This document shows positions 1,323 to 55,010 of a stretch of 57,746 bases of DNA, one piece after another (positions within the stretch are counted from its first letter, which is position 1; the number at the start of each line of letters is the position of its first letter). Under the pieces are notes generated by a model that was given only the letters and a program-made list of their open reading frames with translations, had not been told where the DNA came from and ran no database searches. The position numbers were made by a program, and so were the translations under genes. This DNA is from Folioceros fuciformis (taxonomy: Eukaryota), in contig JBNGIO010006370.1 in assembly GCA_049999805.1 (NCBI GenBank), forward strand, positions 59,329-117,074, read 5' to 3'.

Positions 1323-3563
1323 TCACTCTCCGCATGTTGTTTTATCTGCAGCCAAAAAACTGTGCACCCATCCTTGCAAGTCTGTCCACCAGCTCTGGCC
1401 TGGCTGTTTCCACGCTCCGATTGCCTTCCTCCTTGCTTGGATCTCCCGAGCCTCCTTCCACATCCGGGCACCAGCGTATATGTTTGACATGGACACGTAT
1501 GCTGCAGCGTTTTTCTCGTCTCGCTTTAGTGCTTCATCAAACGCCTGGCGTCCCACGTACACGTTGCTCCAGGTTCGGCAAGCACCCAAAAGGGTGTGCC
1601 AGACTGCATCTTGAGGCTGCACAGGCATGGTCTGCACCACCGCTAGTGCATTGTCAAGTTGGCCCGCAAGGGCTAACAGGGCCACCATGCACGAGTAGTG
1701 CTCTGTGGTGGGGGCGATGCCGTAGCATCTGCTCATGGCTTCAAAGAAGTGTTGCCCCTCTGTCACCAGACCCACATGACTGCACACAGTCAGTACACTG
1801 ATGAACGTTATATCATCTGGCTGGATACCATCATCCTCTTGCATTCTGTGAAGCAAATCGAACACCACTTCAGCGTTTGCTTCATGGGCGTATCCAGCAA
1901 TCAGTGCATTCCAGGCGACTAGGCTTCTCTCGGGCAATTCATCGAACACTTTCTGCGCATCAACCATGCTCCCACACTTTGCATACATGTGCATCAAACC
2001 GATGGCTAAGAACACGTCAACTTGATGCCCTTGTTTTCGAATCTCAACATGAAGCTGCCTTCCCAGATGCAAGGCTGCAACGTTTGCGCATGGCTGCAGG
2101 AGGCAAGCAAATGTCACACAATCGGGTGCCACGGTGCCTTCTTGCTGCAAAGCTCTGTAGAGGCCGAGAGCTTCCTGACCCATGCCCTGCTGTGAATACC
2201 CTGCGATCATAGCATTCCAAGTCACCACATCCTTGGTCCCAAGTCGGTCAAACACGGCCTGAGCATCCTCGAGGCTGCCACACTTGGCATACATGTTAAC
2301 CAAACTATTGGCTACGACCACATCAGCCTGAAGGCCTTGCTCTCCGATCTGTGCATGAAGCTGCCTCCCTGTCTCCAATGCCGAGAAACCAATACTCGCG
2401 CATGCCTGCAGAAGGCAAACGAATGTCACACAATCAGGTGAAGCGATGCCTTCTTCCTGCATGGCTTCGTACAGGGAAAGCGCTTTCTCACCCTTGGCCT
2501 GCTGGGAATATCCTGATATCAAGGCATTCCAAATCACCACATCCTTGTCAGGAATCCCGTCAAACACTCTATGAGCTTCTGCCAAGCTGCCGCATTTGGC
2601 ATACATGTGCACCAAGGCATTGCAGACAAACAGACCAGGCTCCACCCCAGCGGTCAACACATGAGCATGCACCTCCAGCCCAGTTTTCAAGTCTGCTTCC
2701 CTCGCACACGCCTGCAAGACTGCCACAAAAACATGGCAATCTGGCCTAACGCTTGACGCCCTCATCTCCTGATACAGGTGGATGGCCTGCTTGGCTTGTC
2801 CGTGCTTAACATGCGCAGAGATGATGGCAGACCACGTGAAGGCATCAGGTTCGGAAACCATGGTGAACACATCCATCGCTTCTTGCAACTTGCCATGAGA
2901 AGCATACATCCTTAGGATGTGGTTGCACAAGAGCGTGTCGGAATCATGTCCCTTCCACACAACCAGACCGTGGGCAAGGCGCCCCAGCACCAAATCCTTC
3001 GTAGCCACACACTCTTTCAGCACGGTGTACAAGAGAGCCTGAGATACAGCACACCCTGCCTGCCCCAGAACTCCCACAGCCTCAACAGCTTCCCGGACCT
3101 TTCCCTGCCGACATAGCTTGCACACAACATCAGCCGTTACGCATGTTCCGATCCCTGTACGCCCCTGATGCTGCACAACATCCAGCGAGTTGCACTTGGA
3201 TGCAGGAACCAACGGCACATCCAGAGCAGGCAGCTCTTGCCAACCCCTCTCCACAGCTTGAAAACATTCTCTTTCGCGGGCTGCTTTGGTTGGAACACCT
3301 CGGCCTCTCCGGGCCTGTTTGTCTCCTAGCTCAAAGCTCCAACACAGATCAGCACCAGAGCTCCTTCTACAAGACAACATGGACTGTCCCGAATGTATCT
3401 CTGTCCCCGACTCCACCAGAGCTGTTGCCAAGAGGGGCCCTCGCGCCCTCTGCGAGAACCACGTGCAACCACGATTCTGAGAAGCACCCCTTGACTCGAA
3501 GGAGTGAAGCCTGTACCCAAGATCCAGCTCCACTACTCCAGTTGCCCTTGTTGCGCAAATCAT
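1323..3563 (-). CDS. PLS-class PPR protein with E domains and WW-type PG box (WKQPGQSWWTD); E+ tail frameshifted, no DYW domain seen
   Basis: Repeated P/L/S motifs (LVHMYAKCGSLAEAHRVFD, DVVTWNAMIAGY, PDCVTFACLL), CSHVGLV, HYSCMVALL, W..LLGACR, AAYVSMSNIYA; intronless; start codon uncertain. Confidence 0.9.
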   Translation of the reverse strand: MICATRATGVVELDLGYRLHSFESRGASQNRGCTWFSQRARGPLLATALVESGTEIHSGQSMLSCRRSSGADLCWSFELGDKQARRGRGVPTKAARERECFQAVERGWQELPALDVPLVPASKCNSLDVVQHQGRTGIGTCVTADVVCKLCRQGKVREAVEAVGVLGQAGCAVSQALLYTVLKECVATKDLVLGRLAHGLVVWKGHDSDTLLCNHILRMYASHGKLQEAMDVFTMVSEPDAFTWSAIISAHVKHGQAKQAIHLYQEMRASSVRPDCHVFVAVLQACAREADLKTGLEVHAHVLTAGVEPGLFVCNALVHMYAKCGSLAEAHRVFDGIPDKDVVIWNALISGYSQQAKGEKALSLYEAMQEEGIASPDCVTFVCLLQACASIGFSALETGRQLHAQIGEQGLQADVVVANSLVNMYAKCGSLEDAQAVFDRLGTKDVVTWNAMIAGYSQQGMGQEALGLYRALQQEGTVAPDCVTFACLLQPCANVAALHLGRQLHVEIRKQGHQVDVFLAIGLMHMYAKCGSMVDAQKVFDELPERSLVAWNALIAGYAHEANAEVVFDLLHRMQEDDGIQPDDITFISVLTVCSHVGLVTEGQHFFEAMSRCYGIAPTTEHYSCMVALLALAGQLDNALAVVQTMPVQPQDAVWHTLLGACRTWSNVYVGRQAFDEALKRDEKNAAAYVSMSNIYAGARMWKEAREIQARRKAIGAWKQPGQSWWTDLQGWVHSFLAADKTTCGE

Positions 3564-3779
3564 ACAGCGCAGAGCACACCCGGGACTCAGCCCTCATGAC
3601 TCTGCTGGGCCGACTTCTTCCTCATGGAAATGCATACCTTGAATCATGTCCCCTGTTTCCACTGGTCTCTCAGGCAGCCCCTCTGGCTCACAGTTGTCAA
3701 CTAGGCTAGCGGCTGGCGGCCTTGGACATTCACGTGGGCTTATTGAGCAGATTCGTATCCTCGCGGGGCTTGAAATCGT

Positions 3780-29007: not shown

Positions 29008-31587
29008 TTGCCTTCTTCGAGATGGGTTGGGTTTTCATGGCTATTTCACATGAGATGTAACCTGCGATTTACAGACACGCGTGTCGTGGTGATGAAGCAC
29101 CAAGGATGCACGTTTCTGCAACAGCCCAATGTTTTGTCCGCCAGCCAGGCCCGGGCTATCGATAGCAGGTATGTGGGCAGCCGCATGTGCCAGTTGGGGG
29201 CAACGGCAGGAACGTCCTCAGTGGCTCGGGGAGCAGCAGAGGCTGGGCAGGGGCAGAAGGAGCGGCAGGAGGTTTTGTGGCAAGACCTCTTCTCAGATCC
29301 GTGGCAGTGGTGGGACTACCGGGCGGATGCCAAGAGCCCACAGTATCCGGACTTCAGGCACAAGACCTCGAAGCAGGCACTGTGGCTCAACAATTTGTAC
29401 AAGCCTGAGTGGGTGGATGAGGAGCTGGCCAGGAGGGATGTTGGGTTGTCCAAATTCACATCCAGCATGGTACAGACCTTGAGCAGACACTGCGAGCAGG
29501 GGACGGTGGGCGAGGCTGTGGACATTTTGGAGCTCTTGGTGCAGAGAGGATGCTCTGTAAGCCTGTCCGTTTTCCGGTTGGTTTTGAAAAAATGCGGGAC
29601 TGCGAGGGATGTGAGCGTGGGGAAGCGGGTGCATGCGCTGGCTGTTACAAGTGGGTACGAGTCTAGCGCATTCCTGGCCAACCATATCATCTGTATGTAC
29701 GCTTGCCACGGGGAATTAGAGGAAGCTGTGCAGGTGTTCAGCAAGGTGCTTGTTCCAGATGCTTACATGTGGTCGTCCATGATCATGGCTTTTGGGCGAC
29801 AGGGAAAACCAGCGGAAGCTATCAGATTCTACCTGCGGATGCGAGAATCGGGTGTGGAGCCTGACAACCATATATTTGTGGCAGTTCTCAAGGCTTGTGC
29901 CAATGCGGCGGATTTGGTTTCGGGCAAGCAGGTGCATGCTGATATCGTGACCAGTGGTGTGCGGCCCAATGTCTTCGTTGGTAACAGCCTGGTGAACATG
30001 TATGCAAAATGCGGGAGCCTGGACGATGCACGTGAAGTGTTTGACGCCTTGGAAACTAGGGATTCGGTGACATGGAATGCAATCATCACCGGGTATACAC
30101 AGCAGGGGATGGGTCGGGAAGCTCTGGCACTGTATTCGAGGATGCTGGAGGAGGGCATTGCTCCAGCTGACCAAGCCACATTTGTGTGTCTCCTGAAAGC
30201 GTGTGCAAGTGCCGGGGCTTTACACGAGGGTAGGCAGCTTCATGAATTGATTCAAAAGAGGAGACTGGAAGGTGATCTTGTAGTTGGGAGCTGCCTGATA
30301 GACTTGTATTCTAAGTGGGGGGGTGTAGAGGACGCTCGCAAAGTGTTTGACGGATTGTGCAGCAAAGATGTGGTGGCGTGGACTGCCATGATCACAGGGT
30401 ATGCACAGCAGGGAATGGCTGAGGAAGCCCTGTGCCTTTACAAGAGTATGCTGCAGGAGGGCATCACTTCACCTAATCGTGTCACATTTCTCTCTCTCCT
30501 TCACGCATGTGCCACTGTGGGCGCTGCGCAGCAGGGAATGCAGCTTCATGCTCAGATCCGTGAAAGAGGTCTGGAAACGGATGTGCTGGTGGGCAACTGC
30601 CTGGTGGACATGTATGCAAAATGTGGAAGGTTGGAGGCTGCACGATCCGTCTTTGATGCCTTGCCCGTCAGGGATGTGGTGGCATGGAGCGCTCTGCTCA
30701 ATGGCTATGCTGAGCACAGTGATTGCCACATGGCATTCCAGTGTTTCAGAGAGATGCTTCAGCAAGGCGTGGAGCCTAATGGGACCACCTTCAGTAGTCT
30801 TCTCGTGGCATGTAGTCATGCAGGGCTCGTCCTTGAAGGCCAGCAATTCTTCCGGATGATGGTGGATGACTACTGCATTGTCCCCGATGACCATCACTAC
30901 AACTGCGTGGTTGATCTCCTTGGGCGAGCAGGCCGTTTGGATGAGGCAGAACATATTCTGCTCACCATGCCGCTGGATTGTCATGTAGTGGGATGGACTT
31001 CCCTGCTAAGTGCCTGCAAAAGCTACGGTGATGTGGAACGTGGAGAGCGATGCTTCCAACGCCTGGTAGAAGAAGAACCTGAAGTAGCAACTCCCTACGT
31101 TCTCTTAGGTAGCATGTATGCAAATGCTGCCAGGTGGGAAGACTTAGATCACGTAGAGAGCCTTAGAAAGGGGGCAGGTGCTTGGAAGAAGCCAGCCAAG
31201 GCTTGCATCGAGGTGAAGAACAAGGTGCATGAGTTCACAGTGGGTGACGAAAGGTCTGATGTTGCATCTATGCTGAGGGATGTGAGTACTAAATTGAAAT
31301 TGGGCGGCCATGTGCCAGAAACATGGTTGGTCCCCAAGGTAGCCTCTGAGCAGGAGAAGGAAGACGCTTTGTGTGGACATGCCGAGAAACTGGCTCTGGC
31401 ATATGGTCTGCTCAACACTCCAGATGGTACAACTCTGCTTGTAACTAAAAACCTGCGCATGTGCCATGACTGCCACAGCAGCACCAAGATTATGTCACGT
31501 GTGGAGCATCGAGAAATCGTAGTAAGAGATGTACACCGAGTACATCGCTTTCTGAATGGTGCTTGTTCTTGTGGGGATCGGCACTAA
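29008..31587 (+). CDS. PLS-PPR protein with DYW:KP domain ending GDRH and an N-terminal OSB/PDF-like motif; candidate organellar RNA editing factor
   Basis: PLS triplets; WKKPAKACIEV; LCGHAEKLALAYGL; KNLRMCHDCH; HRFLNGACSCGDRH*; intronless; true start probably ATG 29050 or 29092. Confidence 0.93.
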   Translation: MPSSRWVGFSWLFHMRCNLRFTDTRVVVMKHQGCTFLQQPNVLSASQARAIDSRYVGSRMCQLGATAGTSSVARGAAEAGQGQKERQEVLWQDLFSDPWQWWDYRADAKSPQYPDFRHKTSKQALWLNNLYKPEWVDEELARRDVGLSKFTSSMVQTLSRHCEQGTVGEAVDILELLVQRGCSVSLSVFRLVLKKCGTARDVSVGKRVHALAVTSGYESSAFLANHIICMYACHGELEEAVQVFSKVLVPDAYMWSSMIMAFGRQGKPAEAIRFYLRMRESGVEPDNHIFVAVLKACANAADLVSGKQVHADIVTSGVRPNVFVGNSLVNMYAKCGSLDDAREVFDALETRDSVTWNAIITGYTQQGMGREALALYSRMLEEGIAPADQATFVCLLKACASAGALHEGRQLHELIQKRRLEGDLVVGSCLIDLYSKWGGVEDARKVFDGLCSKDVVAWTAMITGYAQQGMAEEALCLYKSMLQEGITSPNRVTFLSLLHACATVGAAQQGMQLHAQIRERGLETDVLVGNCLVDMYAKCGRLEAARSVFDALPVRDVVAWSALLNGYAEHSDCHMAFQCFREMLQQGVEPNGTTFSSLLVACSHAGLVLEGQQFFRMMVDDYCIVPDDHHYNCVVDLLGRAGRLDEAEHILLTMPLDCHVVGWTSLLSACKSYGDVERGERCFQRLVEEEPEVATPYVLLGSMYANAARWEDLDHVESLRKGAGAWKKPAKACIEVKNKVHEFTVGDERSDVASMLRDVSTKLKLGGHVPETWLVPKVASEQEKEDALCGHAEKLALAYGLLNTPDGTTLLVTKNLRMCHDCHSSTKIMSRVEHREIVVRDVHRVHRFLNGACSCGDRH

Positions 31588-40200: not shown

Positions 40201-40358
40201 TCTTCTCTTTCTCGGCCCAGTCCAGTTCTTTCGAAGCAGGGGCGCAAAATCCTTTTTCAGCTGGTTTCTCGATGGGAGCTGGTGGCCCGGAGCAGAGGCA
40301 GGGTCGCAAGTTTGTTAAGGCTAGTAAGAGGATCGGTGGTCAAAGGAGAGGCAGGTGA
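34293..40358 (+). CDS. NUP1: Nuclear-basket FG nucleoporin NUP1/NUP136-like (NUP153 counterpart), about 10 exons
   Basis: GAGGK..RRKTPYDRP, LSRLLQSR, SPVDIARAFMG, SVGPIRRTR, STETARKILETLD, many PVFGQ/TPFGQ repeats, basic tail GRKFVKASKR; approximate exons 34293(or 34401)-34728, 35002-35057, 35203-35300, 35450-35705, 35837-36133, 36220-36300, 36401-37165, 37334-37866, 37998-38609, 38762-40358. Confidence 0.82.
39575..40150 (+). repeat. Coding FG-repeat array with 36-39-nt units
   Basis: GQxPxFGQ repeated more than 12 times in the last exon. Confidence 0.85.
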
Positions 40359-42695: not shown

Positions 42696-45600
42696 ATGGG
42701 CGTAGTATGGCATCCGGATCCGGTATGGGCCCAGCAAATTGGTGGCTGTACAGGGATTCTAGCAGGGGCTCCCGCTCATCTCACCGGGGGAAGTGAACAG
42801 GTGCTAAACAACCAAGCTTCCAGGTGGAGGAGTGAAAGGAATCCAACACGTCCCAGAAGATGGAGGACTGGAGATGGATTTTCCAGCGATGGTGGTGGTG
42901 ACCAGGGCGAGGAGCTTTTATTTCGACGATTGTTTCTGGAACCTGCCATGTGGTGGGATAACAGGCGAGGAAGGAAGTGTTCCCGTTCCCCTCACTTTCG
43001 GCGTAAGGGGTCCGGCGAGGTCCTCTGGTTAGACAACATGGAGAAGCCAGCTTTGGTGGATGAGCAGCTTGTTTCTTTGGACGTGCAGGTTGTTCATGGT
43101 GTCTCTGCTCCGCAATCGAGCTTTTCGGATAATCCTGAGACGGGCAGGCGTGCAGGATCGAAAATGTTGAGCACGTTATGTCAGCAGGGGAGGCTCAACG
43201 AGGCCGTGGGAGCTCTGGAAGCTCTGGTGCAGACAGATTTCCCTGTTTCTCCTTCACTCTTTTATAGTGTTATCAAACTGTGTACAGTCAAGAGGGACAT
43301 GGTTGTGGGGCGACGAGTTCATAATCTCACTGTAAGACTCGGGTACGAGTCTAACACGTACTTGGGGAACCATATCGTGCGCATGTATGCCTGTGGAGAT
43401 AGGCTACAGGAGGCCATGGATGTGTTCACCAGGGTGGAGAGACCAGATGCCTTCATGTGGTTTTCCATCATCTCGGCACATGCTAAACATGGGAAGCCTA
43501 ATGAGGCCATACGACTATATCATGAGATGCGGGGCTCAGGTGTGAAAGCAAACGCTCATGTCTTTGTAGCAGTCCTTCAAGCATGTGCATTTGCTGTGGA
43601 CTTAGAAGCTGGCAGACACGTGCACTACGATGTGCTTCATAGCGGCCTTCCGCCTAACGTGTTTGTTGGCAATTGCCTGGTGGACATGTATGCAAAGTGT
43701 GGGGAGCTGGAAGATGCACGCAGAGTCTTTGACCGCATGGCCACAAAGGATGTGGTGACATGGACGTCCCTGATAGCTGGGTATGCAAAGCATGGGCTCG
43801 GCCAGGAGGCGCTTCTTCTGTATGAACAAATGGAGCAGGAGGGCCTGATTGTGGCGAACCATGTGACTTTTTCCTGCCTCCTGAGGGCCTGTGCAATCGC
43901 CGGGGCTTTGCAGAAGGGCAGGGAGCTGCACTTGCAGATCGTGGAAAGAGGACAGCTCAATAACATACTAGTAGGTAACAGTCTGGTGGACATGTATGCA
44001 AAATGCGGGGAATTGGGAGACGCACGCAGGGTGTTCGACAACTTGGCTAGAAAGGATGTGGTGACATGGACAGCCTTAATAGCTGGGTATGCAAATCATG
44101 GGCTTGGGCTAGAGGCGCTTGCTCTGTATGGACGTATGGAGCAAGAGGGTTTGATTGTGGCTGACCATGTTACTTTTGCTTGTCTTCTGAAGGCCTGTGC
44201 AAGCTTAGGTGCCTTACAGAAGGGCAGGCAGCTGCATTCACTCATTGTGGAAAGGGGACAGCTGGATAATGTATTGGTGGGCAATACCTTGGTGGACATG
44301 TATGCGAAATGTGGCGAAATGAAAGAGGCTCGTAGGGTTTTTGACAACATGCTATCAAAAAATGTGGTGACGTGGACGTCCCTAATTGCTGGGTATGCGC
44401 AGCAAGGGCTTGCACAAGAGGCCCTTTTGCTGTATGGACTTATGGAGCACGAAGGCGTGATTGTGGGTGACGAGGTTACTTTTGCTTGCCTTCTGAAGGC
44501 CTGCGCGAGTGCTGGTGCCTTGCAGAAAGGCAGGCAGCTGCACTCACAGATTGTGGAAAGAGGCCAGTTGGACAACATCGTTCTGGCCAACTGCCTGGTG
44601 GACATGTATGGAAAATGTGGTGAACTGAAAACTGCGCGCCAAGTTTTTGACAGCTTGACAACGAAAAATGTGGTGACTTGGAATGCTCTAATTGCAGGGT
44701 ATGCAAACCATGGGCTTGCTCAAGAGGCGCTTGCTCTGCATGAACAAATGGAGAATGGGGGCCTGATTGTTGCTGATCATGTTACTTTCACTTGCCTTCT
44801 GAAGGCCTGTGCAAGTGCTGGTGCCTTACAGAAGGGCAGGGAGCTGCACTCACAGATTGTGGAGAGGGGTCAGCTAGATAACCTGGTGGTGGGCAATTGC
44901 CTTGTGGACATGTATGCAAAATGTGGTGAATTGGAGGATGCTCGCAGGGTATTTGAGAGCTTAAGCACGAAGGACGTGGTAACATGGACGGCCCTCATTG
45001 CTGGGTATTCACAGCAAGGTCTCGGGCAAGAGGCGCTTGCCCTGTATGGACAAATGGAACAGGAGGGCCTGATTGTGGCAGACCATGTTACGTTTGCTTG
45101 CCTTCTGCAGGCGTGTGCAAATGCTGGTGCCCTACAGAAGGGCAGGCAATTGCACTCACAGATAGTAGAAAGAGGAGAGCTAGATAAAAAACTTATGGGT
45201 GCTTGCCTAGTGGATATGTATGCGAAGTGTGGCGAGCTAGAAGATGCACGCAGAGTCTTTGAAAGCTTGGTTGCAAAGGATGTGGTGACATGGACGGCCC
45301 TGATTGGCGGGTTTGGTGCTTGTGATGAAGGTCATGACGCACTAGCCTGTTTTGAGGAGATGTTAGTCGCTGGTGTTGAGCCCGATGAAGCCACTTTTAC
45401 TTGTGTTCTAGTAGCATGCAGTCATGAGGGACTGGTGAATGAGGGTCGCCAACACTTCGATTCCATGGTCGAACGACATGGCATCACACCCAGTGTTGAG
45501 CACTACAACTGCATGATTGATCTTCTTGGGCGTGCAGGCCACTTAGATGAGGCTGAGACCATGCTATTATCGTGCGAGGTCCAAAACAATCCCGTGGGAT

Positions 45601-46196
45601 TGACATCTTTGTTGAATGCTTGCAAAACTCACGGGGACATTAAGAGAGCAGCGCGGTGTTTTGAAAGTCTCGTTCGGCTGGAGCCTCAGAGTGCATCCGC
45701 ATACGTGCTCATGGCTAACACCTATGCAGATGCAGGAAGATGGGCCGATGTAGACAGGATCGAGGCACAGAGGATGGTAGCAGGAGCCAACAAGAAACCT
45801 GCTGTGGCGGGCATCGAGGTGAATAAGCAGGTACATACATTCCTGGTCGGGCAAATAAGAGATGATCTGGCGCTCAAGGTAGAGACCGCGAATGCTCGAC
45901 TGAAGCAGGAAGGGGGCCATGTACCACAGACAAAGCTGGTGTTGAAGCCACTGTCTGAGAAGGAAAAGGAAGATTCGCTGTGTGGGCATGCCGAGAAGCT
46001 AGCGCTGGCCTTTGGCCTGTTGAACACTCCTGGTGGCACGCCTCTGGTGGTAACCAAGAATCTGCGCATGTGCAGCGACTGCCACAGTTCCACGGAGATC
46101 ATGTCAAGGGTTGAAAGTAGAGACATTGTTGTAAGGGATGGGTACCGTGTGCATCGATTTGCAAATGGTTGTTGCAGCTGTAAGGGCCGACCTTGA
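42696..46196 (+). CDS. PLS-PPR protein with DYW:KP domain ending KGRP and a degenerate N-terminal PDF-like motif
   Basis: Six LVDMY(A/G)KCGE units spaced exactly 306 nt; NKKPAVAGIEV; LCGHAEKLALAFGL; KNLRMCSDCH; HRFANGCCSCKGRP*. Confidence 0.94.
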   Translation: MGVVWHPDPVWAQQIGGCTGILAGAPAHLTGGSEQVLNNQASRWRSERNPTRPRRWRTGDGFSSDGGGDQGEELLFRRLFLEPAMWWDNRRGRKCSRSPHFRRKGSGEVLWLDNMEKPALVDEQLVSLDVQVVHGVSAPQSSFSDNPETGRRAGSKMLSTLCQQGRLNEAVGALEALVQTDFPVSPSLFYSVIKLCTVKRDMVVGRRVHNLTVRLGYESNTYLGNHIVRMYACGDRLQEAMDVFTRVERPDAFMWFSIISAHAKHGKPNEAIRLYHEMRGSGVKANAHVFVAVLQACAFAVDLEAGRHVHYDVLHSGLPPNVFVGNCLVDMYAKCGELEDARRVFDRMATKDVVTWTSLIAGYAKHGLGQEALLLYEQMEQEGLIVANHVTFSCLLRACAIAGALQKGRELHLQIVERGQLNNILVGNSLVDMYAKCGELGDARRVFDNLARKDVVTWTALIAGYANHGLGLEALALYGRMEQEGLIVADHVTFACLLKACASLGALQKGRQLHSLIVERGQLDNVLVGNTLVDMYAKCGEMKEARRVFDNMLSKNVVTWTSLIAGYAQQGLAQEALLLYGLMEHEGVIVGDEVTFACLLKACASAGALQKGRQLHSQIVERGQLDNIVLANCLVDMYGKCGELKTARQVFDSLTTKNVVTWNALIAGYANHGLAQEALALHEQMENGGLIVADHVTFTCLLKACASAGALQKGRELHSQIVERGQLDNLVVGNCLVDMYAKCGELEDARRVFESLSTKDVVTWTALIAGYSQQGLGQEALALYGQMEQEGLIVADHVTFACLLQACANAGALQKGRQLHSQIVERGELDKKLMGACLVDMYAKCGELEDARRVFESLVAKDVVTWTALIGGFGACDEGHDALACFEEMLVAGVEPDEATFTCVLVACSHEGLVNEGRQHFDSMVERHGITPSVEHYNCMIDLLGRAGHLDEAETMLLSCEVQNNPVGLTSLLNACKTHGDIKRAARCFESLVRLEPQSASAYVLMANTYADAGRWADVDRIEAQRMVAGANKKPAVAGIEVNKQVHTFLVGQIRDDLALKVETANARLKQEGGHVPQTKLVLKPLSEKEKEDSLCGHAEKLALAFGLLNTPGGTPLVVTKNLRMCSDCHSSTEIMSRVESRDIVVRDGYRVHRFANGCCSCKGRP

Positions 46197-47324
46197 GAGC
46201 AAAGAAGAGGTCAGCAGGTAAAAAACCATCTCCACGTGGCAGTGGGTGTATGCAACGTGCCCTCCCTCCTGTGACACACTTAACTTAAGCATTCAGATTA
46301 TGATCCCGGTACTATTATACAAATGATGATCTCTTTTCTAAGCTTTTTCTATTTTACTCATCGATCACCATGTGGTTGTTGTAAGTTCACTACGACGTAA
46401 ATTAGGGTTCAAAGTTCATGTACAATAATATAATTATATCCTTATTATATTTATTAAGCTATTGTAGAACACAATCAGTTTGTATTTTTAAATTTTCCAA
46501 TGTGGAAGAATGGTCCGGCGTAAGATTCTTCCTCTAACGGCTATTACACACTTGTACTACTATTTATCGTGCATTTAAGTTGTGCAATGTCACTCTCCAC
46601 TTGACGCTTATATTATGCATGTCTCCATTGCACCCTCGTTTATATAGTCTTTATTTCGCACTCCTTGAGATACTCTTGTTATCGCCGGCTCTTTTATGAA
46701 GAATGCTTGTCCCTTGTCTTTGTCATCCTGTTGACAATATTGCTGCTTATCGGGGTGCAAGTAGCTTTTATCATCACCACCATGCAAGAGAATCCACCAA
46801 CTTGATACATGAGCTTCTCTTCTCATCACTTGTCCTCGAAGAGAGTTGTACAAGCTCGACATACGACCTTATCATCACATGAAGCCACACAAGCGTGACC
46901 TATTACCTCTATTTATAGAGAGTGGGTGACTATCTACATTCTTCTCTCTTGTTGGGACACAAATTTGGCCTCGGGCTCATATTTCTATGTGTACAGAGTG
47001 AGCCACTGTTTACATGCTTCTCTCCCTCTTGGATAGGGCACAACAACGTTATAAGCTCTATTACAAATTTGATGGAGGGTTTAGGGTTTAGAGCATCATT
47101 AAATATGATAGACATCTTGTGTTTAGCTTATTTCTAGCTACAAGGCAATAGAGAAAAGATATTGTGCTTGTATCATGTTAAGAGATGTATCTTCTTCTCC
47201 ATTCTCTTTGGATTTGTGTTCTTTCTTTCATCAATAGGAATAGATTACTAGCTAGCAATACTACTTGATTTACATACTTTTGTGCACCCTTCTATTTTCA
47301 AAATTCCATTCCAGGCTATTAAGA

Positions 47325-49634
47325 ATGGGTGTGAAAATGAATGACCTCATTGCAGCATTGATATTGTTGCAAATGTTGGGAAATACTATGGGAAGCAGAG
47401 ATGTAACCATGAAGATGATCGTATTTGGAGACTCATTTGTTGATATTGGCAATAATAACTACAGGAACACAATTGGCATTGCTAGAGCAGATTTCCCACC
47501 ATATGGTACTGATTTCATTGGTGGTAGGGCTACAGGAAGGCATTCTAATGGCATGCTTATTGTAGACATGTTGGCTGCTAAATCAAAATTCCATTCTTAC
47601 CCACCTCCATACCTTAATGCAAGTCATACAACTTATATTACAGGTCCTGGAGTCAATTTGGCATCCGCATGTTCTGGGCTCCTAAATAATACTGGTCACC
47701 AATATGGCAAGGTGATTCCGTTATCTGAACAACTTTTATTATTCAAGAGTGATATCTTGACTGCGGTAAGAGCTTCTATTGGATACCACGATAGTATTAC
47801 TCTTGTTAAACAAACCTTGTTCCATATATCAGTAGGGACAAATGATGTAGCAGAACATGTGATGTCAGGCCATAAACTAGATGATGAATTTAGAAATAAC
47901 CTACTTGGTAATTATACATGCTTTCTTCAAAATTTGTATAGTTTGGGTGCTCGATTTTTTTCTCTAACAGATATTCCAGCACTTGGCTGTACCCCTCATA
48001 TGAGAGCAAGATTCAAACCAACAGACAATACAATGTGTGTCTCCTTTTTGAACGAATGGGTTCACAACTTCAACAAGGAGCTTGAAATCAAGCTTGACCA
48101 ATTTCAATTAGAATTTTCAGAGTCGAAGATTCACATTGCACCGTTATTTAATGTAACAAATCATGTATCCCATAATCCTGTCAAACATGGATTTACTAAG
48201 AATGAGGCTTGTTGTGGAGCAGGATTATACAATGGTGAGCATAGATGCAATATTTCTTCAAACATTTGCAATGACACTGGTGATTATGTGTGGTTTGATG
48301 CATTGCATCCAAGTGAGCACACAAACAGATTAATATCAAATGCAATGTGGAAGTGTAAGCATAATGCTTCAAATACCAATTCGTCACGTCTATCAACTAT
48401 TGAACACTTAATTGATCTTATAATTGATTTCATACAACAAATAGATGGTGTTAAGGGCAGCTCTCCATCACCGAGTTTGGCTCCTGATAACAATAATAAA
48501 GGAGACACAATACTTACAAATGCAACTAAAAGTGGAGGTGATATGGCTCCTTCAAATTTGCATGATCCTTCCTTTGATGAAGGGTCTCCAGAGCCGGATC
48601 CGTATTGGTTTGATGAAGGGTCTCCTGTGCCAGATCCGTATGATGATTATAGTGATATATCTCCAAAAGCTTCTCCTTCAAATATGCCCGATCCTGATTA
48701 TGATGATGTACCTCCTAAGCCAGATCCAAATGGTAATTCTCCATCGAAGACACCTTCACAGTATGAGCCTTCGCAAGCTCCTTCTCAGGATAAGTCTCCC
48801 CATCCGCAAGCTCCTTCTCAACATGAGTCTCCACATCCACAAGCTCCTTCTTATGAGAAGCCTCAACATGGTTCTTCAGAGGCTCCTTCTCATGACAAGC
48901 CTCAACATGGTTCTTCAGAGGCTCCTTCTCATGACAAGCCTCAACATGGCTCTTCACAAGATCCTCCTCATGACAAGCCTCAACATGGTTCTTCAGAGGC
49001 TCCTTCTCATGACAAGCCTCAACATGGTTCTTCACAGGCTCCTTCTCAGGACAAGCCTCAACATGATTCTTCACACGCTCCTTCTTATGACAAGCCTCAA
49101 CATGATCCCCAGCAGGATAAGCCTTCACGAGCTCCTGATTGGAATGAGCCTCCACAAGCTCCCCAACGGGATAAGCCTACACAAGCTCCTCATTGGAATG
49201 AGCCTCCACAAGCTCCCCAGCGGGATAAGCCTACACAAGCTCCTCATTGGGATGAGCCTCCACAAGCTCCCCAACAGGATAAGCCTGCACAAGGTCCTCA
49301 TTGGTACGAGCCTCCACAAGATCCCCAGCAGGATAAGCCTGCACAAGCTCCTCATTGGGATGAGCCTCCACGAGATCCGCAGCGGGATAAGCCTGCACAA
49401 GCTCCTCATTGGGATGAGCCTTCAGAGACTCCCTCCCAAGACAAGCCTTTACATAATCCTCCCCCTCTTTTGTCACAAGATCCTTCAAAAAGTTTTCCCT
49501 CTTGTGTAGCACTTAACAATTCAAAAGATTATGGTCTCTTGCGGTATTATGGAAAGGCCAATCCTCGTGCTAAGCCGTTCTTGATTTTAATCATAGTTGC
49601 AATAGTTGAGGTTCTGACTCATTCTCTATTTTAA
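47325..49634 (+). CDS. Intronless secreted GDSL/SGNH esterase-lipase with long Pro-rich repeat C-terminus and hydrophobic tail
   Basis: Signal-like LIAALILLQMLG; FGDSFVDIGNN, DFPPYG, GRHSNG, GVNLASA, GTND, WFDALHPSE; then (APSHDKPQHGSSE)n and (APHWDEPPQAPQQDKPAQ)n; ends FLILIIVAIVEVLTHSLF. Confidence 0.88.
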   Translation: MGVKMNDLIAALILLQMLGNTMGSRDVTMKMIVFGDSFVDIGNNNYRNTIGIARADFPPYGTDFIGGRATGRHSNGMLIVDMLAAKSKFHSYPPPYLNASHTTYITGPGVNLASACSGLLNNTGHQYGKVIPLSEQLLLFKSDILTAVRASIGYHDSITLVKQTLFHISVGTNDVAEHVMSGHKLDDEFRNNLLGNYTCFLQNLYSLGARFFSLTDIPALGCTPHMRARFKPTDNTMCVSFLNEWVHNFNKELEIKLDQFQLEFSESKIHIAPLFNVTNHVSHNPVKHGFTKNEACCGAGLYNGEHRCNISSNICNDTGDYVWFDALHPSEHTNRLISNAMWKCKHNASNTNSSRLSTIEHLIDLIIDFIQQIDGVKGSSPSPSLAPDNNNKGDTILTNATKSGGDMAPSNLHDPSFDEGSPEPDPYWFDEGSPVPDPYDDYSDISPKASPSNMPDPDYDDVPPKPDPNGNSPSKTPSQYEPSQAPSQDKSPHPQAPSQHESPHPQAPSYEKPQHGSSEAPSHDKPQHGSSEAPSHDKPQHGSSQDPPHDKPQHGSSEAPSHDKPQHGSSQAPSQDKPQHDSSHAPSYDKPQHDPQQDKPSRAPDWNEPPQAPQRDKPTQAPHWNEPPQAPQRDKPTQAPHWDEPPQAPQQDKPAQGPHWYEPPQDPQQDKPAQAPHWDEPPRDPQRDKPAQAPHWDEPSETPSQDKPLHNPPPLLSQDPSKSFPSCVALNNSKDYGLLRYYGKANPRAKPFLILIIVAIVEVLTHSLF
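48760..49450 (+). repeat. Coding tandem repeats with 33-, 39- and 54-nt units
   Basis: GCTCCTTCTCATGACAAGCCTCAACATGGTTCTTCAGAG repeated about 6 times; GCTCCTCATTGGGATGAGCCT... repeated about 6 times. Confidence 0.9.
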
Positions 49635-50415
49635 TTATAGTTGCAATAAATGAGGTTGTGAGTCATTCTCTATTTTAATCATAGATGCAATACCTTTAAG
49701 TACTATACCATTGTTTTGAATTCATGCACATGGAACATTGGAGTTCAAAATTCATGGACCCCATCGTTATTTTAAGTTTATTAAGTTATGCATGTTAGTG
49801 TTGGTGGAACACAATCAACAATCTAGGCGCACAAGTCAAGTCACCTGGTTATGGGGATTGGGACTAGTGACCATGTCCCTTGCATTGTCCAGGACACTAT
49901 TATATGTAGACTTTATTACATTAAAAAGGATGTGGAAAGAATCTATCTACTTGAATAGAATGCAAGTGAGAATAATCGATAATAAATAACTATCTTATAA
50001 TTGCTTCCTACATAGAGCATATCAAAATCTTCTTCATTGGCAAATCATTGAGAGTATCATTGCTTGAAGAATAAAATTAGCCTCCCTCTAGCTTGCATCA
50101 AGACTTTGGACGTACAGCCCGAAAGGAACCCGCAAAAGCGTTGTGGGAGCCCTTGGAAAGGGTTGTTTGAGACTTTGGATAGATTTGTGGATACTTAAAT
50201 GACGCTTAAATGAAAGTGTGTGGTAGAAATGGCTGGCCTAAGTACATGTAGCTTTCACACCGAGTGCAGAATTCCATATGGAAAATTTCATACAACTGAA
50301 CTGAAGTAGCCACTGACTTTAGACTTCTTGATGGGCTGATGCCCGGGGCGAGCAGGCAACCGCGATCGCACACTTCTTGTGCCTCTCGGCGTCAGAGAGA
50401 GCGGGTACATGTGTG

Positions 50416-53043
50416 ATGACTACATTTTGGCAACCGGATCCCTTGTGCGCCCAGCAAATCGGTGGGCTCACAGGGATTCTAGGAGGAGCAGCTCCTGGCA
50501 ACCTCATCATAGGGAGGCAATCGCTGGCGAACAACCGGGCCTGTAGGTGCAGCAGGTTAAGGAGCCCAGCACTTTCAATGAAATGGATCTCTGGGGGATG
50601 TGGTGTCTACCAGGAGCCACAGCAGGAGCAGAAACGGGAAGAGGAAGAGGAACAGGAGAAATTGTGGCGGCATTTTTTTCAGGATCCCAGCATGTGGTGG
50701 GATATCAGGCGAGGTAAGAAGGGCTTTTGCTCGCCTGATTTCCGGCATAAGGGGTCCGGCGAGGTCCTGTGGTTAAACAATGTGTTCAAGCCTGCTTGGG
50801 TGGATGAGCAGCTCGTTTCTTTGGATATGCACACGGCTCATGGCACCTCTCTTTCCAAGTCAAGCTCCCCGAATAAGCCTGAGCCTTGCAGGCTTGCAGG
50901 ATTGGAAATGGGCATTGTAACTGATGTGACAGTGAGCACGTTATGTCAGCAGGGGAAGCTTGGTGCGGCCGTTGGGGCCCTTGAATTTTTGGTTCGGACA
51001 GACTACCCTATTCCACAGTTTCTCTTCTACACTGTGCTGAAATTGTGCGCAGCTAAGAAGGATCTGGTTCTGGGGCGACGAGTTCATGATCTCGTTGTCA
51101 AACTTGGGCACGAGTCAAGTGCATACTTGGGGAACCATATCTTGCGCATGTATGTATCTGGGGGAAGGCTGCAAGAGGCCATGGATGTGTTCACCAGGGT
51201 CGGGAAACCAGATGCCTTCATGTGGTTTTCCATAATCTCCGCATATGTTAAACATGGGAAGCCTAGAGAGGCCATACAACTTTACCATGACATGCGCACA
51301 TCAGGCGTGAAGGCAGATTCTCATGTCTTTGTGGCAGCCCTTCACGCTTGTGCATTTGCTGCGGACTTGGAGTCTGGCAGGAAAGTGCACTCTGATGTGT
51401 TGTACAGTGGCATTCCTCCTGACCTGTTCGTTGGCAACTGCCTGGTGGACATGTATGCCAAATGTGGCGAATTGGACGATGCACGCAGGGTTTTTGACAG
51501 CTTGCCCACGAAAGATGTGGTGACCTGGACGGCCCTAATAGCAGGCTATGCTAATCTTGGGCTGGGCCATGAGGCGCTTGCTCTGTATGAACGCATGGAG
51601 CAGGAGAGCCTGATTGTCGGTAACCATGTCACTTTTGCTCTCCTTCTAAAGGCCTGTGCAAGCGCCGGTGCATTACGAAAGGGCAGGGAGTTGCACTGTG
51701 AGATTGTGGAACGAGGCCAGCTGGATAACATACATGTGGGCACTTGCTTGGTGGATATGTATGCAAAGTGTGGCGAACTGGAAGATGCACGAAGGGTTTT
51801 CGACGACATGCCAACAAAAAATGTGGTGACATGGACAGCCCTGATCGCCGGGTACGCACAGCAAGGGCTTGGGCAAGAGGCGCTGGCTCTGTATGGACGA
51901 ATGGAACAGGAGGGCGTGATTCTGGCTGACCACGTCACCTTCGCTTGCCTGCTGCAGGCCTGTGCAAGTGCTGGTGCCCTACAAAAGGGCAGGCAGCTGC
52001 ACTCGCAGATTCTGAAAAGGGGGAAGCTGGATGACAAGCTTGTTGGAGCTTGCTTGGTGGATATGTATGCAAAGTGTGGTGAAATGGAGGATGCACGCCA
52101 GGTTTTCGACAGCTTGGCCACAAAAAATGTGGTGACATGGACGGCCCTGATTGGCGGGTTCGGTGCTTGCGATGAAGGTCACAACGCATTAGCTTGTTTT
52201 GAGGAGATGCTAGTCGCTGGCATTCAGCCTGACGACGCTACATTTACTTGCCTTTTAGCAGCATGCGGTCACATGGGACTGGTTAATGAGGGTCGCAAGC
52301 ACTTCGATTCCATGCTTGAACAACATGGCGTCAAACCTACTATGGAGCACTACAATTGCATGATTGATCTTCTTGGTCGTGCAGGCCAATTACATGAGGC
52401 AGAGAACATGCTACTATCATGTGAGAGCCAGATGAATATTGTGGGGTTGACGTCTTTGCTCAATGCCTGCAAGAATCATGGAGATGTAGAGAGGGCAGCG
52501 CGGTGTTTTGAGAGTCTCGTGAGATTGCAACCTCACAGTGCATCCCCATATGTACTCATGGCCAATGCCTATGCAGATGCTGGAAGGTGGGCCGATGTAG
52601 ACAGGGTTGAAACACTGAGAATGGCAGCAGGAGCCAATAAGAAACCTGCAGTGGCCGGCATCGAGGTGAAGGAGCAGGTGCACACATTTGTGGTGGGGGA
52701 GAGGACAGATGACATTGCTCTCAAGTTAGAGAGCACTAATGCGCGTCTGAAGCAGGAAGGAGGACACGAACCAAACACAAAGTTGGTGCTGAAGCCACTG
52801 TCTGAGAAGGAAAAGGAGGATGCTCTTTGCGGGCATGCTGAGAAGCTAGCTTTGGCGTTTGGTCTCTTAAACACTCCTAGTGGCATACCTCTGGTGGTAA
52901 CCAAGAATCTGCGCATGTGCAGTGACTGCCACAGCTCCACCGAGATCATGTCCAGGGTTGAAAATAGAGACATTGTCGTGAGGGATGGATACCGTGTGCA
53001 TCGATTCGCAGATGGACGTTGCAGTTGCAAGAATCGACCATGA
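50416..53043 (+). CDS. PLS-PPR protein with DYW:KP domain ending KNRP and an N-terminal PDF-like motif; paralog of 42696-46196
   Basis: ATG 50416 (MTTFWQPDPLCAQQIGGLTGIL) parallels MGVVWHPDPVWAQQIGGCTGIL; three LVDMYAKCGE units; HAEKLA; CSDCH; CSCKNRP*. Confidence 0.94.
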   Translation: MTTFWQPDPLCAQQIGGLTGILGGAAPGNLIIGRQSLANNRACRCSRLRSPALSMKWISGGCGVYQEPQQEQKREEEEEQEKLWRHFFQDPSMWWDIRRGKKGFCSPDFRHKGSGEVLWLNNVFKPAWVDEQLVSLDMHTAHGTSLSKSSSPNKPEPCRLAGLEMGIVTDVTVSTLCQQGKLGAAVGALEFLVRTDYPIPQFLFYTVLKLCAAKKDLVLGRRVHDLVVKLGHESSAYLGNHILRMYVSGGRLQEAMDVFTRVGKPDAFMWFSIISAYVKHGKPREAIQLYHDMRTSGVKADSHVFVAALHACAFAADLESGRKVHSDVLYSGIPPDLFVGNCLVDMYAKCGELDDARRVFDSLPTKDVVTWTALIAGYANLGLGHEALALYERMEQESLIVGNHVTFALLLKACASAGALRKGRELHCEIVERGQLDNIHVGTCLVDMYAKCGELEDARRVFDDMPTKNVVTWTALIAGYAQQGLGQEALALYGRMEQEGVILADHVTFACLLQACASAGALQKGRQLHSQILKRGKLDDKLVGACLVDMYAKCGEMEDARQVFDSLATKNVVTWTALIGGFGACDEGHNALACFEEMLVAGIQPDDATFTCLLAACGHMGLVNEGRKHFDSMLEQHGVKPTMEHYNCMIDLLGRAGQLHEAENMLLSCESQMNIVGLTSLLNACKNHGDVERAARCFESLVRLQPHSASPYVLMANAYADAGRWADVDRVETLRMAAGANKKPAVAGIEVKEQVHTFVVGERTDDIALKLESTNARLKQEGGHEPNTKLVLKPLSEKEKEDALCGHAEKLALAFGLLNTPSGIPLVVTKNLRMCSDCHSSTEIMSRVENRDIVVRDGYRVHRFADGRCSCKNRP

Positions 53044-53857
53044 AATGATGAGGAGGAACTCAGAATTTTGCTCTAGTCCCCTGTAACACACGATTTGTAC
53101 TTCGGTCCTTCAATGTAGGTTCATGACTCGTTACCGGATGGGACCCAGGTAATCGCCATGTCTGCAAAGGCCCGGCTCGTTATTGCCGGGCTGCCCAGAT
53201 TTGCCTGCAAGTTGTGAGTTCGTAAGAGATTGCCCGAGCCATCACCAACAGTCCTATCGTTGTCCATCTCCACGATGATCCCAGGACCGAAAACGAACTT
53301 CCTGACCGCGGCGATTGGTACGTTCAGACAGCCAAGCAATAGGATCAGAGGTTGATGTGACTGGTTCACTTCAGGCAGTCAGGTTAGTCAAGTCCGATAT
53401 TGCTGAGTTGTTAGGTTTCAGACTGCCAGGCAATTTGATGGTGATGCGATTGTTATGAATGAAAGAAAGTTCGGGGTTGGTGTCGGAGGCAAGTCATCCG
53501 TGTCCGGACAGGCGGACAGCCTATGAGAAAGTGTCCGCTGGTAGCTGCTGGGATTGTGGAGGGCTTTGCCAGGCAAGCGCCAGGGTTAGCTGGCTGCCAG
53601 CAAGTCCTGCACTCTCCCTGCTCGACCAGCTTCGTTCCCGCCCCTTGAGGCCCTTAAGGCACCATGGCGGCCTCCCCGAATTCCATGCACAGCTGCTCGC
53701 AGTTCTTCGCTTCCATGCCCTCTCCTTGCTTTTATCACATCTCCTGCTACATTACTTCAGCAACCGCGTCTTTCGCTCCTCTCGCATTCGGCACCTGCCA
53801 TACCAGAGCTGCTCCTCCTCCTTCGCCGGCGGCAAGTCTCACACATTTCGGGAAGAA

Positions 53858-54846
53858 ATGGCGGCGTACGACGTCCCGTGCATCGGCATTATCCTCCTGC
53901 TGGCACTCACGGCGGCACAATCGCAAGCCAGGGTTCCATCCAGCTCCGACGAGCATCCTGGAAGGCGAGAGCTGAAGGCCTTGGTGCCGAAGCAGCCCCT
54001 GGTCCTGGAGTACCATGGCGGGAAGGTGCTCGGGGAAGGCGCTGGCATTAACGTCTACTTCTTGTGGTACGGCGCCTTCTCGAGGGGCCAAAAGAACATC
54101 CTCAACGGTTTCATCAAGTCCATCGAGCTTAGCGGGGGAAGGAACCCAAGCCCAAGCGTGACCAGCTGGTGGAAGCTGACTGCCGGGTACAAGGATAACA
54201 GAGGCAACGCCGTCCCCGCGGCCGTGAAGCTGGCAGGACAGGCAACAGACACTGGCTCCATCGGCAAGAATCTGAAGAGGGCGGACCTGGAATCATTGGT
54301 GCAGCAGGCTCTGGACTCCAAGAAGCTCCCGGTGGACGCGCATGGCCTCTACTTCCTCCTCACCGCAGCCGACATAGCAGTGGAGGACTTCTGCACAAGT
54401 TCGTGCGGCAGACACTCCGTGCTCCAGGGATCCGCCAAGCTCCCCTTTGCCTGGGTGGGGAACTCAGGCATTCAATGCCCCGGGATGTGCGCCTGGCCCT
54501 TCGCCCCCCCGGCCTTCCCCGGCGCCCCCGCCACCGCCCCGGCCAAGGCCCCCAACGGTGACGTCGGCATCGACGGCATGGTGATTAACGTCGCTTCCAT
54601 GCTGGCCGGCGCCAGCACCAATCCCTTCGGCAACGCTTTCTACCAGGGCGACGCCCTGGCGCCCTTGGAAGCTGCCACAGCCTGCACCGGCAACTACGGC
54701 GCCAACTCCTTCCCCGGCTACCCGGCGACCTCCGCACCGACGCCACCACCGGAGGCAACTTCAACGTGTATGGCCACAGGAGGAGACGGTACCTGGTACC
54801 AGCGCTGTGGAATCCTGCCACCTCCACCTGCGCCGTGTCCGCCTAA
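53858..54846 (+). CDS. EXORDIUM/PHI-1 family secreted protein with a 1-nt frameshift near 54722
   Basis: Signal peptide; LEYHGGKVL, YFLWYG, SVTSWW, FC..SCGRH, WVGNS..QCPGMCAWPF, PNGDVGIDGM, PLEAATAC; canonical end GDLRTDATTGGNFNVYG..RYLVPALWNPATSTC* lies in the shifted frame. Confidence 0.88.
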
Positions 54847-55010
54847 AGACGCCTTGCCTTTCGGCGACTTTCAACTCCAATTTTGTTAGTGGGACGAGAG
54901 TGTAAATGTCCTTTCAGGCACTAGGCCTGCAAAAGGACTATTCTTTTTGTGTACACATTGTGCACGCACTCGTAAATAAATTGCAGTCTGCTACATATGG
55001 CATGCCAAAG

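Follow-up and report, generated by a model that had tools for sequence, protein, structure and literature searches.

A homologue of the OSB PDF motif at the N-terminus of three Folioceros fuciformis PPR proteins of the DYW:KP class and of PPR proteins from mosses, lycophytes and ferns

The usual description of a PPR editing factor comprises a targeting peptide followed by a PPR array and E/DYW domains. In a 57,746 nt stretch of Folioceros fuciformis DNA (GCA_049999805.1, contig JBNGIO010006370.1, positions 59,329 to 117,074, forward strand; hereafter the window), three PPR genes carry ahead of the array a 54-residue module that resembles the PDF motif, otherwise known as a small DNA-binding motif of organelle DNA-maintenance proteins. 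An original prediction held that this module is shared by three DYW:KP paralogues and lacking in a fourth PPR gene, that the fusion is older than the split between the DRH and GRP types, and that the module may routinely serve reverse (U-to-C) editing factors as an accessory domain. The locus thus raises the question of what the module is, and whether it belongs to reverse editing.

The three genes are referred to here by the C-terminal residues of their products, DRH, GRP and NRP (Table 1). In each of them the motif, PPR, E_motif and DYW_deaminase lie within one uninterrupted ORF, and the Pfam families PF01535, PF13041, PF20431 and PF14432 were all found in the three proteins. The order of parts is a presequence (~73–81 residues, predicted to be disordered), one PDF motif, a flexible linker of 15–40 residues, a PLS PPR array, E motifs and the DYW:KP domain. 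The C-termini show KKPA and HAEKLA, in contrast to the PGxxWIEV, HSE and DYW of four database proteins considered below (P0126, P0238, P0270, P0301). Three features are given as DYW:KP hallmarks in PMC9478123: KP where the first box otherwise has PG, a changed active-site region and a C-terminal triplet that is not DYW. The catalytic lysine of this class is reported as Lys88 (PMC11845758). Judged by these sequence features the three proteins belong to the DYW:KP class and are candidate U-to-C editing factors, the NRP gene being a GRP-subgroup variant, paralogous to the GRP gene and in tandem with it. ATGs also occur inside the motif at 42948 (GRP gene) and 50692 (NRP gene), and could in principle yield proteins in which the motif is incomplete. 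Contigs identical to the window were present in one sequencing run; as some of these pieces extend into non-coding flanks and depth between the genes is low, the run is probably DNA and not RNA. Three other runs contained diverged relatives only.

Table 1. Coordinates in the window of the PPR genes, PDF motif copies and deaminase domains
Feature	Coordinates	Strand	Evidence and remarks
PLS-PPR-E-DYW:KP gene ending DRH, intronless	29050..31587	+	Pfam PPR, E_motif, DYW_deaminase; KKPA, HAE; putative CDS, counted from first ATG of ORF 28963-31587
PDF motif copy, DRH gene	29272..29433	+	P-D-F intact; OSB-only profile E 1.6e-18, profile positions 1-50 of 50
DYW:KP deaminase domain, DRH gene	31171..31584	+	tblastn; Pfam PF14432
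PLS-PPR-E-DYW:KP gene ending GRP, intronless, 1166 aa	42696..46196	+	ORF list, Pfam, C-terminus
PDF motif copy, GRP gene, partly eroded	42915..43076	+	OSB-only profile E 2e-12
DYW:KP deaminase domain, GRP gene	45774..46193	+	tblastn; Pfam
PLS-PPR-E-DYW:KP gene ending NRP, intronless	50416..53043	+	ORF list, Pfam, C-terminus
PDF motif copy, NRP gene	50659..50820	+	P-D-F intact; OSB-only profile E 1.5e-18
DYW:KP deaminase domain, NRP gene	52621..53040	+	tblastn; Pfam
Comparison gene, PLS-PPR of E+ type	1323..3563 (ORF 1323-3593)	-	Pfam PPR + E_motif only

Of the 1772 ORF pieces that the window gives in six frames, all of which were searched with a profile of the three copies, only those carrying these copies were matched (E 2.5e-36 to 6.4e-34); the next-best match was at the level of noise (E 0.015). 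This confirms the predicted distribution. The search gave no match in the fourth PPR gene, which the original prediction had called 'WW type' in what we take to be the PG/WW/KP naming. This gene, in which Pfam found no DYW_deaminase, stops ~25 residues into a PG-type DYW domain (PGQSWW), and no DYW sequence follows downstream in any frame. With a PLS array and E motifs, and a truncation where the DYW domain begins, it is assigned by sequence to the E+ subgroup. As to position, the interval first proposed for the GRP copy (42915-43075) stood, whereas that for the NRP copy (50660-50820) was in the wrong frame and contained a stop, the correct one being 50659-50820. The three copies share 23 invariant columns; the NRP copy is 67% and the DRH copy 44% identical to that of GRP. 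The presequences are 42% identical between GRP and NRP and 17–27% against DRH, compared with 67% and 44–54% for the motif in the same comparisons, so that the flanks do diverge more than the motif (17–42% versus 44–67%), as had been proposed. The P-D-F signature within the ~50-residue unit is present in two of the three copies (NRP and DRH). The GRP copy reads P-H-F and has three family-conserved residues substituted (W3 to F, D27 to H and W47 to L).

The resemblance to OSB proteins goes beyond this signature. A profile built exclusively from OSB motifs (131 motifs from 45 proteins, OSB-named or with an SSB domain) found all window copies at full length, with the E values given in Table 1, the next window match being at 0.036; conversely, a profile of the PPR-linked motifs found OSB1, OSB2 and OSB3, and 24 among the 120 matches listed for it bear these or organellar ssDNA-binding names. 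As each profile finds the other group, the module is strictly PDF-like, and these comparisons make it a genuine homologue of the PDF motif in OSB proteins. The PDF profile (A1) retrieved 725 cluster representatives at E<=1e-3, of which 222 remain when the threshold is tightened to E<=1e-10, and at least 10 of its best 150 matches have OSB architecture, a Pfam SSB domain followed by C-terminal motif copies. OSB and PPR-linked motifs share the consensus lW..lF..P..WwDnR..K...p...PDFkhK.tg..LWl....P.WV...L, and its conserved positions, mostly aromatic and basic, are kept in the window copies except for the three lost from GRP. The DRH, GRP and NRP proteins themselves are not OSB proteins, as Pfam finds no SSB domain in them and PPR repeats come after the motif instead; what they have in common with OSB proteins is the motif alone, present as one N-terminal copy on a PPR editor, unlike the one to five copies placed C-terminal to an OB/SSB-like domain in OSB proteins. 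Pfam holds no model for the PDF motif, and even a protein with 13 motif copies gives no Pfam family. In a word-indexed search, the motif region of NRP returned five candidates, none significant, a result that reflects the word index and not absence.

Outside the window, motif and PPR body were found together in 44 retrieved proteins, and in 43 of these the motif comes before the PPR body; one protein, P0252, has an additional second motif pair mid-protein. The named sources are Sphagnum compactum, S. jensenii, Diphasiastrum complanatum (25 among the 120 matches listed for the PPR-motif profile), Adiantum, Ceratopteris and Pteridium transcriptome ORFs, and no seed-plant PPR protein with the motif appears among the best 150 and best 120 matches listed for the two profile searches. 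These unannotated proteins resemble the window genes in having N-terminal motifs of the same lineage and a PLS-class array; unlike them, most have either no DYW domain or DYW:PG, and those of Diphasiastrum and Pteridium often have two to three motif copies. The motif precedes a canonical PG-box/HSE/DYW C-terminus in four proteins, P0126 of Sphagnum compactum and P0238, P0270 and P0301 of Diphasiastrum, and no DYW domain was detected in 38 PDF-PPR proteins or fragments, including many PLS/E proteins of Diphasiastrum, Adiantum, Ceratopteris and Pteridium. An intact motif is present in 2 of 29 HAE-type (KP) database proteins, or 2 of 11 when the N-terminus is informative; many N-termini of the motif-less ones may be truncated gene calls. 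Both carriers, P0144 and P0162, end in GRP, and with them four of the five GRP-subgroup proteins with an informative N-terminus (the two in the window, P0144 and P0162, not P0166) have the motif; the corresponding figure for database DRH-type proteins is 0 of 4 with an intact copy. A clear vestige was detected in P0170 (12.5 bits versus a shuffle maximum of 5.9) and a marginal one in P0169. From its sequence distribution the module is not KP-specific, since the C-terminus may be E only, DYW:PG or DYW:KP. The N-terminal PDF-PPR fusion is old, widespread in mosses, lycophytes and ferns, and not special to reverse editing. The original prediction had named an equal frequency of the motif in PG- or WW-type PPR proteins as a result that would count against it, and the four DYW:PG proteins bear this out in presence only, not in frequency.

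PPR-linked motifs carry an extra conserved K44 and D49 (KP.WVD), which sets them apart from OSB motifs as a lineage of their own. In a first FastTree of 279 motifs, one clade (support 0.83) took in 18 of the 23 PPR-linked motifs, while the copies from Sphagnum and P0043 fell outside it; this tree was superseded by a larger set and an AU test. The larger tree has 81 PPR-linked and 83 OSB-type tips and shows 4 label changes, and a tree holding the PPR-linked motifs together scored 61.9 lnL above the free quick search (p-AU 0.931). A single distinct sub-lineage is thus not rejected, on an inference of single origin built on about 54 alignment columns. Because one PPR-linked lineage fits and a vestige is present in a DAH-ending KP protein, the proposal that the fusion predates the DRH/GRP split is supported at the sequence level.

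Selection could be measured for the GRP/NRP pair only, close tandem paralogues with dS of about 0.65-0.85 (~0.7), since against the DRH gene synonymous sites were saturated or estimators failed. With GRP and NRP so closely related, the three copies in the window cannot count as independent of one another. Omega for the motif was 0.32 (bootstrap 95% interval 0.13–0.70, excluding 1), comparable to the PPR array (0.23), and 0.63 in the flanks (presequence 0.57, linker 0.78). These values indicate that the motif is under purifying selection, in agreement with the prediction on this point; the contrast with the flanks fell short of significance (permutation p 0.084).

AlphaFold2 predicted residues 71–140 of the NRP protein, which span the motif, with pLDDT 92–96, as a helix, three short strands and a helix. 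As confidence is low on both sides, the motif in this model looks like an independent alpha/beta mini-domain on a flexible tether. Searching PDB sequences with this motif's profile gave weak, chance-level rows only (best E 0.014), Foldseek with the motif model had a best E of 3.7, and VIA-align found nothing at Z>=2 among 48,161 chains. A solved analogue was therefore not found by Foldseek or VIA-align, from which novelty of the fold does not follow.

As for the role of the module, we lean towards its being an accessory binder of single-stranded nucleic acid, acquired in an old single fusion, that helps PLS-class editing factors generally and does not determine the direction of editing. A PDF unit would have been fused once, long ago, to a PLS-PPR gene; PPR gene duplication would have spread the fusion, with two to three copies arising in some lineages, and the module would often have been lost or eroded afterwards. 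As a mini-domain whose conserved residues are largely aromatic and basic, it may bind single-stranded nucleic acid independently of sequence. Structural work has shown that a PPR array binds RNA in parallel, with its N-terminus towards the 5' end, so a module tethered upstream of the array could add affinity for RNA 5' of the PPR footprint. Against this helper role stand the 27 of 29 KP-type proteins without an intact copy (many N-termini being possibly truncated gene calls), the loss from the GRP copy of three conserved residues including the D of P-D-F, and the fact that omega of the motif does not differ significantly from that of the flanks. Moreover, binding to RNA is an extrapolation, as recombinant AtOSB1 and AtOSB2 favour ssDNA over dsDNA or RNA according to the portion of PMC4166229 covered. 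That preference would suit a module that tethers the editor to the organelle nucleoid through ssDNA, beside nascent transcripts and without contact to the target RNA, as would the flexible linker parting it from the PPR array and the two to three OSB-like copies in Diphasiastrum and Pteridium proteins. We regard such a tether as unlikely; the PPR-linked motifs form a diverged lineage of their own, marked by additional conserved residues, so that their ligand may have changed. A surface for protein-protein interaction or assembly, such as dimerisation or helper recruitment, which might replace helpers missing in these lineages, appears distinctly unlikely. All named PDF-PPR fusions among the matches listed come from non-seed plants, and hornwort and moss editosomes have been proposed to consist mainly of PPR and ORRM proteins (PMC13386178, in the part consulted), but the aromatic and basic conserved positions suit nucleic-acid contacts at least equally well, and the absence of seed-plant PPR proteins holds only among the matches listed.

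The erosion of the GRP copy, the frequent lack of the motif in KP relatives and the vestiges in P0170 and P0169 would also be expected of a functionless, decaying relic carried along by PPR gene duplication. We consider this very unlikely in view of an omega whose bootstrap interval excludes 1, the 23 invariant columns across paralogues with saturated synonymous sites, the high-confidence predicted fold and the retention of the motif across mosses, lycophytes and ferns. Least probable, and already contradicted as stated, is the originally proposed standard accessory of DYW:KP proteins needed for reverse editing. It accords with the motif in all three window KP genes and not in the E+ gene, and with its frequency in the GRP subgroup, P0144 and P0162 included. 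The four PG-box proteins, the 38 without a detected DYW domain, the rarity of intact copies among HAE-type proteins and their absence from the four informative database DRH-type proteins all speak against it, as do synthetic KP proteins, which edit U-to-C in E. coli without such a module (PMC9478123, as far as covered). A stronger form of the helper role, in which the N-terminal PDF motif is an ancestral, single-origin helper that clamps single-stranded nucleic acid and makes editing by PLS-class editors of non-seed land plants more efficient, we hold to be improbable.

The module combines features of two known systems. Like the PDF motif of OSB proteins it has ~50 residues, the same conserved pattern and mutual, highly significant profile matches. 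In their PLS array, E motifs, KP box, HAE and DRH/GRP endings the window genes resemble the hornwort DYW:KP DRH and GRP subgroups (Gerke et al. 2020 and Gutmann et al. 2020, cited in the part of PMC9478123 covered), with the difference that one gene here ends in NRP. The N-terminal PDF motif further distinguishes them from the accounts of DYW:KP proteins and from the designer KP proteins in the covered part of that paper, where it goes unmentioned and was omitted by the designers. No published description of a PDF-PPR architecture was found in the literature covered. Having no Pfam model, and sitting in proteins without an SSB domain, the module would be missed by Pfam-based architecture surveys and by OSB surveys that demand an OB fold (PMC13393729).

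The tempting over-reading is thereby corrected: the PDF module is no marker of reverse editing. Many hornwort-type, moss, lycophyte and fern editors instead have at their N-terminus a further conserved, confidently folded module that is kin to a ssDNA-binding motif. GRP-type designer PPR-DYW:KP editors reach only about 22–26% editing in E. coli, according to the available part of PMC9478123; if the clamp reading were true, natural GRP-type U-to-C editors would use the module, and adding it would improve designer DYW:KP editors. More generally, if the module aids RNA capture or sub-organellar placement, it would bear on the design of synthetic C-to-U and U-to-C editors and on editing in lineages with thousands of sites.

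The stretch is plant nuclear DNA, and its gene content includes four PLS-class PPR genes. The deaminase domains of three of them, here called DRH, GRP and NRP after their C-terminal triplets, combine a KP box (KKPA) with the active-site HAE and the endings DRH, GRP and NRP. The two hornwort DYW:KP subgroups bear the names DRH and GRP (PMC9478123), so the window is most likely of hornwort origin and the NRP gene a variant within the GRP subgroup. The three ORFs translate free of stops and are undisturbed by the 100 N in the window, presumably one assembly gap. No deaminase was found downstream of the fourth PPR gene in any frame. The Phi_1 and C2/PRT_C genes are ordinary plant genes on the flanks of the PPR cluster, retroelement sequences separate the C2/PRT_C gene from the DRH gene, and the repeats ending the ORF run at 34245-40358 bear a putative resemblance to FG-repeat nucleoporins.

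Features of the window, in order of position
Feature	Position	Strand	Remarks
Fourth PPR gene	1323-3563	-	Pfam PPR and E motifs only; stops ~25 residues into PG-type box
Multiple-C2-domain protein	8969-12166	+	exons; PRT_C end (Pfam)
Ty1/copia-type retroelement	17503-21378	-	1066-aa ORF with GAG-pre-integrase, integrase core, SH3-like domain, RVT_2 (Pfam)
Gag-like ORF	20704-21378		upstream of the 1066-aa ORF
Second reverse-transcriptase/integrase-like piece	23012-24025	-	broken
DRH gene	29050-31587	+	uninterrupted single ORF; Pfam PPR, E motif, DYW-family deaminase
PDF motif of DRH gene	29272-29433	+	third copy
ORF run	34245-40358	+	no Pfam match; ends in long short-repeat array rich in glycine, glutamine, phenylalanine ('...FGQ...')
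GRP gene	42696-46196	+	uninterrupted single ORF; Pfam PPR, E motif, DYW-family deaminase
PDF motif of GRP gene	42915-43076	+
GDSL-lipase ORF	47256-49634	+	Pfam Lipase_GDSL; between GRP and NRP genes; long tandem-repeat C-terminal tail rich in proline, glutamine, histidine
NRP gene	50416-53043	+	uninterrupted single ORF; Pfam PPR, E motif, DYW-family deaminase
PDF motif of NRP gene	50659-50820	+	corrected frame
EXORDIUM/Phi_1 family gene	53459-54889	+	Pfam, E 1.7e-80

The 54-residue stretches between presequence and PPR array in the three proteins share 23 invariant columns. Scanned with a profile of these copies, the full set of 1772 ORF pieces from six-frame translation of the window gave matches to the three of them only (E ~1e-34 to 1e-36), the best further match (E 0.015) being noise, and none in the fourth PPR gene. 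The module thus recurs in all three DYW:KP paralogues and is missing from the fourth gene, as the original prediction had it; its translation of the GRP copy was right, and its NRP interval did contain the motif, with the frame off by one base.

No Pfam model covers the module. Searched against 1.84 billion cluster representatives, the three-sequence profile matched 725 proteins at E<=1e-3, of which 222 passed E<=1e-10. Among the 150 matches listed, 10 had a Pfam SSB domain with motif copies C-terminal to it, the architecture of organellar ssDNA-binding (OSB) proteins; 12 had PPR repeats (E<=1e-8), 126 had no Pfam family (E<=1e-8), one of these carrying 13 motif copies, and the remaining two had DUF4927 and a kinesin motor domain. 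At least 24 matches to a profile of 19 PPR-linked motifs were named OSB1, OSB2, OSB3 or organellar single-stranded DNA-binding protein by their sources. Moreover, an OSB-only profile (131 motif instances from 45 OSB-named or SSB-domain proteins, PPR proteins and window sequences excluded) matched the three window copies full-length (E 1.5e-18, 1.6e-18 and 2e-12; next window match, E 0.036). As the family-wide conserved positions are also kept, although the GRP copy has W3, the D of P-D-F and W47 replaced, sequence comparison identifies the module as a true PDF motif, in agreement with the name "PDF-like" first given to it. The DRH, GRP and NRP proteins share this motif with OSB proteins but are not OSB proteins themselves, because they lack an OB/SSB-like domain.

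With the KP deaminase region as query, 62 DYW proteins were returned, and an intact motif was present in 2 of 29 HAE proteins (P0144 and P0162, both ending GRP) and in none of 29 HSE proteins, mostly from angiosperms. Eleven KP-type proteins had an informative N-terminus (>=44 residues preceding the first PPR): two carried an intact motif, one a clear vestige (P0170; 12.5 bits, where 450 shuffles reached 5.9 at most), one a marginal match and seven nothing, although gene calls with missing N-termini may hide copies. The motif was absent from all 14 PG-type control N-termini. By eye, and with no profile score, the N-terminus of the DRH-type P0163 has stretches that look like the two ends of the motif, without its middle. 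Counting the window, the motif occurred in 4/5 informative N-termini of the GRP subgroup and 1/5 of the DRH type, a difference that at such small numbers is a lead, not a result.

The motif was found together with a PLS-PPR body in 44 retrieved proteins, from sources including two Sphagnum species, Diphasiastrum complanatum, Adiantum, Ceratopteris and Pteridium aquilinum transcriptome ORFs. Two were GRP proteins, four had a PG box, HSE and DYW ending (Sphagnum compactum P0126; Diphasiastrum P0238, P0270 and P0301), and in 38 no DYW domain was detected, several of these being short fragments and several stopping in or just past the E region. This distribution, with the intact motif in so few HAE proteins, speaks against the proposed role as an accessory of reverse editing factors; on these sequences, the motif is not special to DYW:KP factors. 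Diphasiastrum complanatum contributed at least 25 of the 120 matches listed to the PPR-motif profile, mostly with 2-3 motif copies, and no seed-plant PPR protein with the motif was among the matches listed. In lycophyte and fern PDF-PPR proteins (P0233-P0301 from D. complanatum, P0231, P0007) the PPR array is usually preceded by 2-3 motifs in tandem, an arrangement shared with OSB proteins, whereas the window proteins have one copy each. P0252, with a second motif pair mid-protein, is probably two PDF-PPR units merged in one gene model.

The origin of the fusion was addressed with a tree of 164 motifs, of which 83 were OSB-type and 81 PPR-linked, the window's three among the latter; membership of the PPR-linked group had been fixed from protein architecture ahead of the tree. 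The label changed only 4 times over the tree, and the best tree holding all PPR-linked motifs together lay 61.9 log-likelihood units above the unconstrained quick search (p-AU 0.931). PPR-linked motifs also have two additional conserved residues in common (KP.WVD). A single old fusion would be expected to leave such a pattern, although ~54 columns fall short of proof of one origin. The DRH/GRP split is therefore younger than the fusion, as originally predicted, and so, probably, is the KP type.

Selection was estimated by the Nei-Gojobori method on the tandem pair GRP/NRP (dS ~0.65-0.85), comparisons with the DRH gene being saturated. Omega was 0.57 for the presequence, 0.32 for the motif, 0.78 for the linker, 0.23 for the first 200 PPR residues and 0.11 for E + DYW. 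The motif is under purifying selection, as had been predicted, about as strong as that on the PPR array (bootstrap 95% interval 0.13-0.70); stronger constraint than on the pooled flanks (0.38-1.03) was not significant (permutation p 0.084).

AlphaFold2 modelling of NRP residues 1-330, with an alignment of 24 PDF-PPR relatives, gave pLDDT 92-96 for residues 71-140, predicted as a helix, three short strands and a helix. The ~60 residues before the module had pLDDT <50, and the linker (residues 141-160) ~51-58, followed by PPR helices. Modelled alone, the motif took the same fold (mean pLDDT 84.7). No solved structure resembled the model (Foldseek; all-against-representatives alignment) or the motif by sequence. 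The module is thus predicted to fold on its own and to be joined to the end of the PPR array by a flexible tether.

The N-terminal end of a PPR array faces the 5' side of bound RNA in PPR-RNA complex structures, and the tether would place the module there. The conserved positions are largely aromatic and basic, which, with a predicted tethered domain, favours a helper that would bind single-stranded nucleic acid independently of sequence and assist PLS-class factors generally. In the main variant of this reading, the module would tether the protein to nucleoid ssDNA; a protein-interaction surface is a lesser alternative. So is a decaying relic, which is weakened by the omega of 0.32 and by retention over mosses, lycophytes and ferns.

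No published link of the PDF motif to PPR proteins or RNA editing was found in the main texts searched, although an earlier mention is possible, and a 2026 survey of editing-factor domain fusions mentions neither OSB nor PDF. Inclusion in the 2026 OSB survey needed both an OB fold and a PDF motif, so that PPR fusions would go unreported there (PMC13393729). Both the motif and the protein family are known; of the architecture that joins them we found no description. The module itself is real, conserved and was correctly named. Its proposed link to reverse editing does not hold, and of more interest is how widespread and how old the PDF-PPR architecture is.
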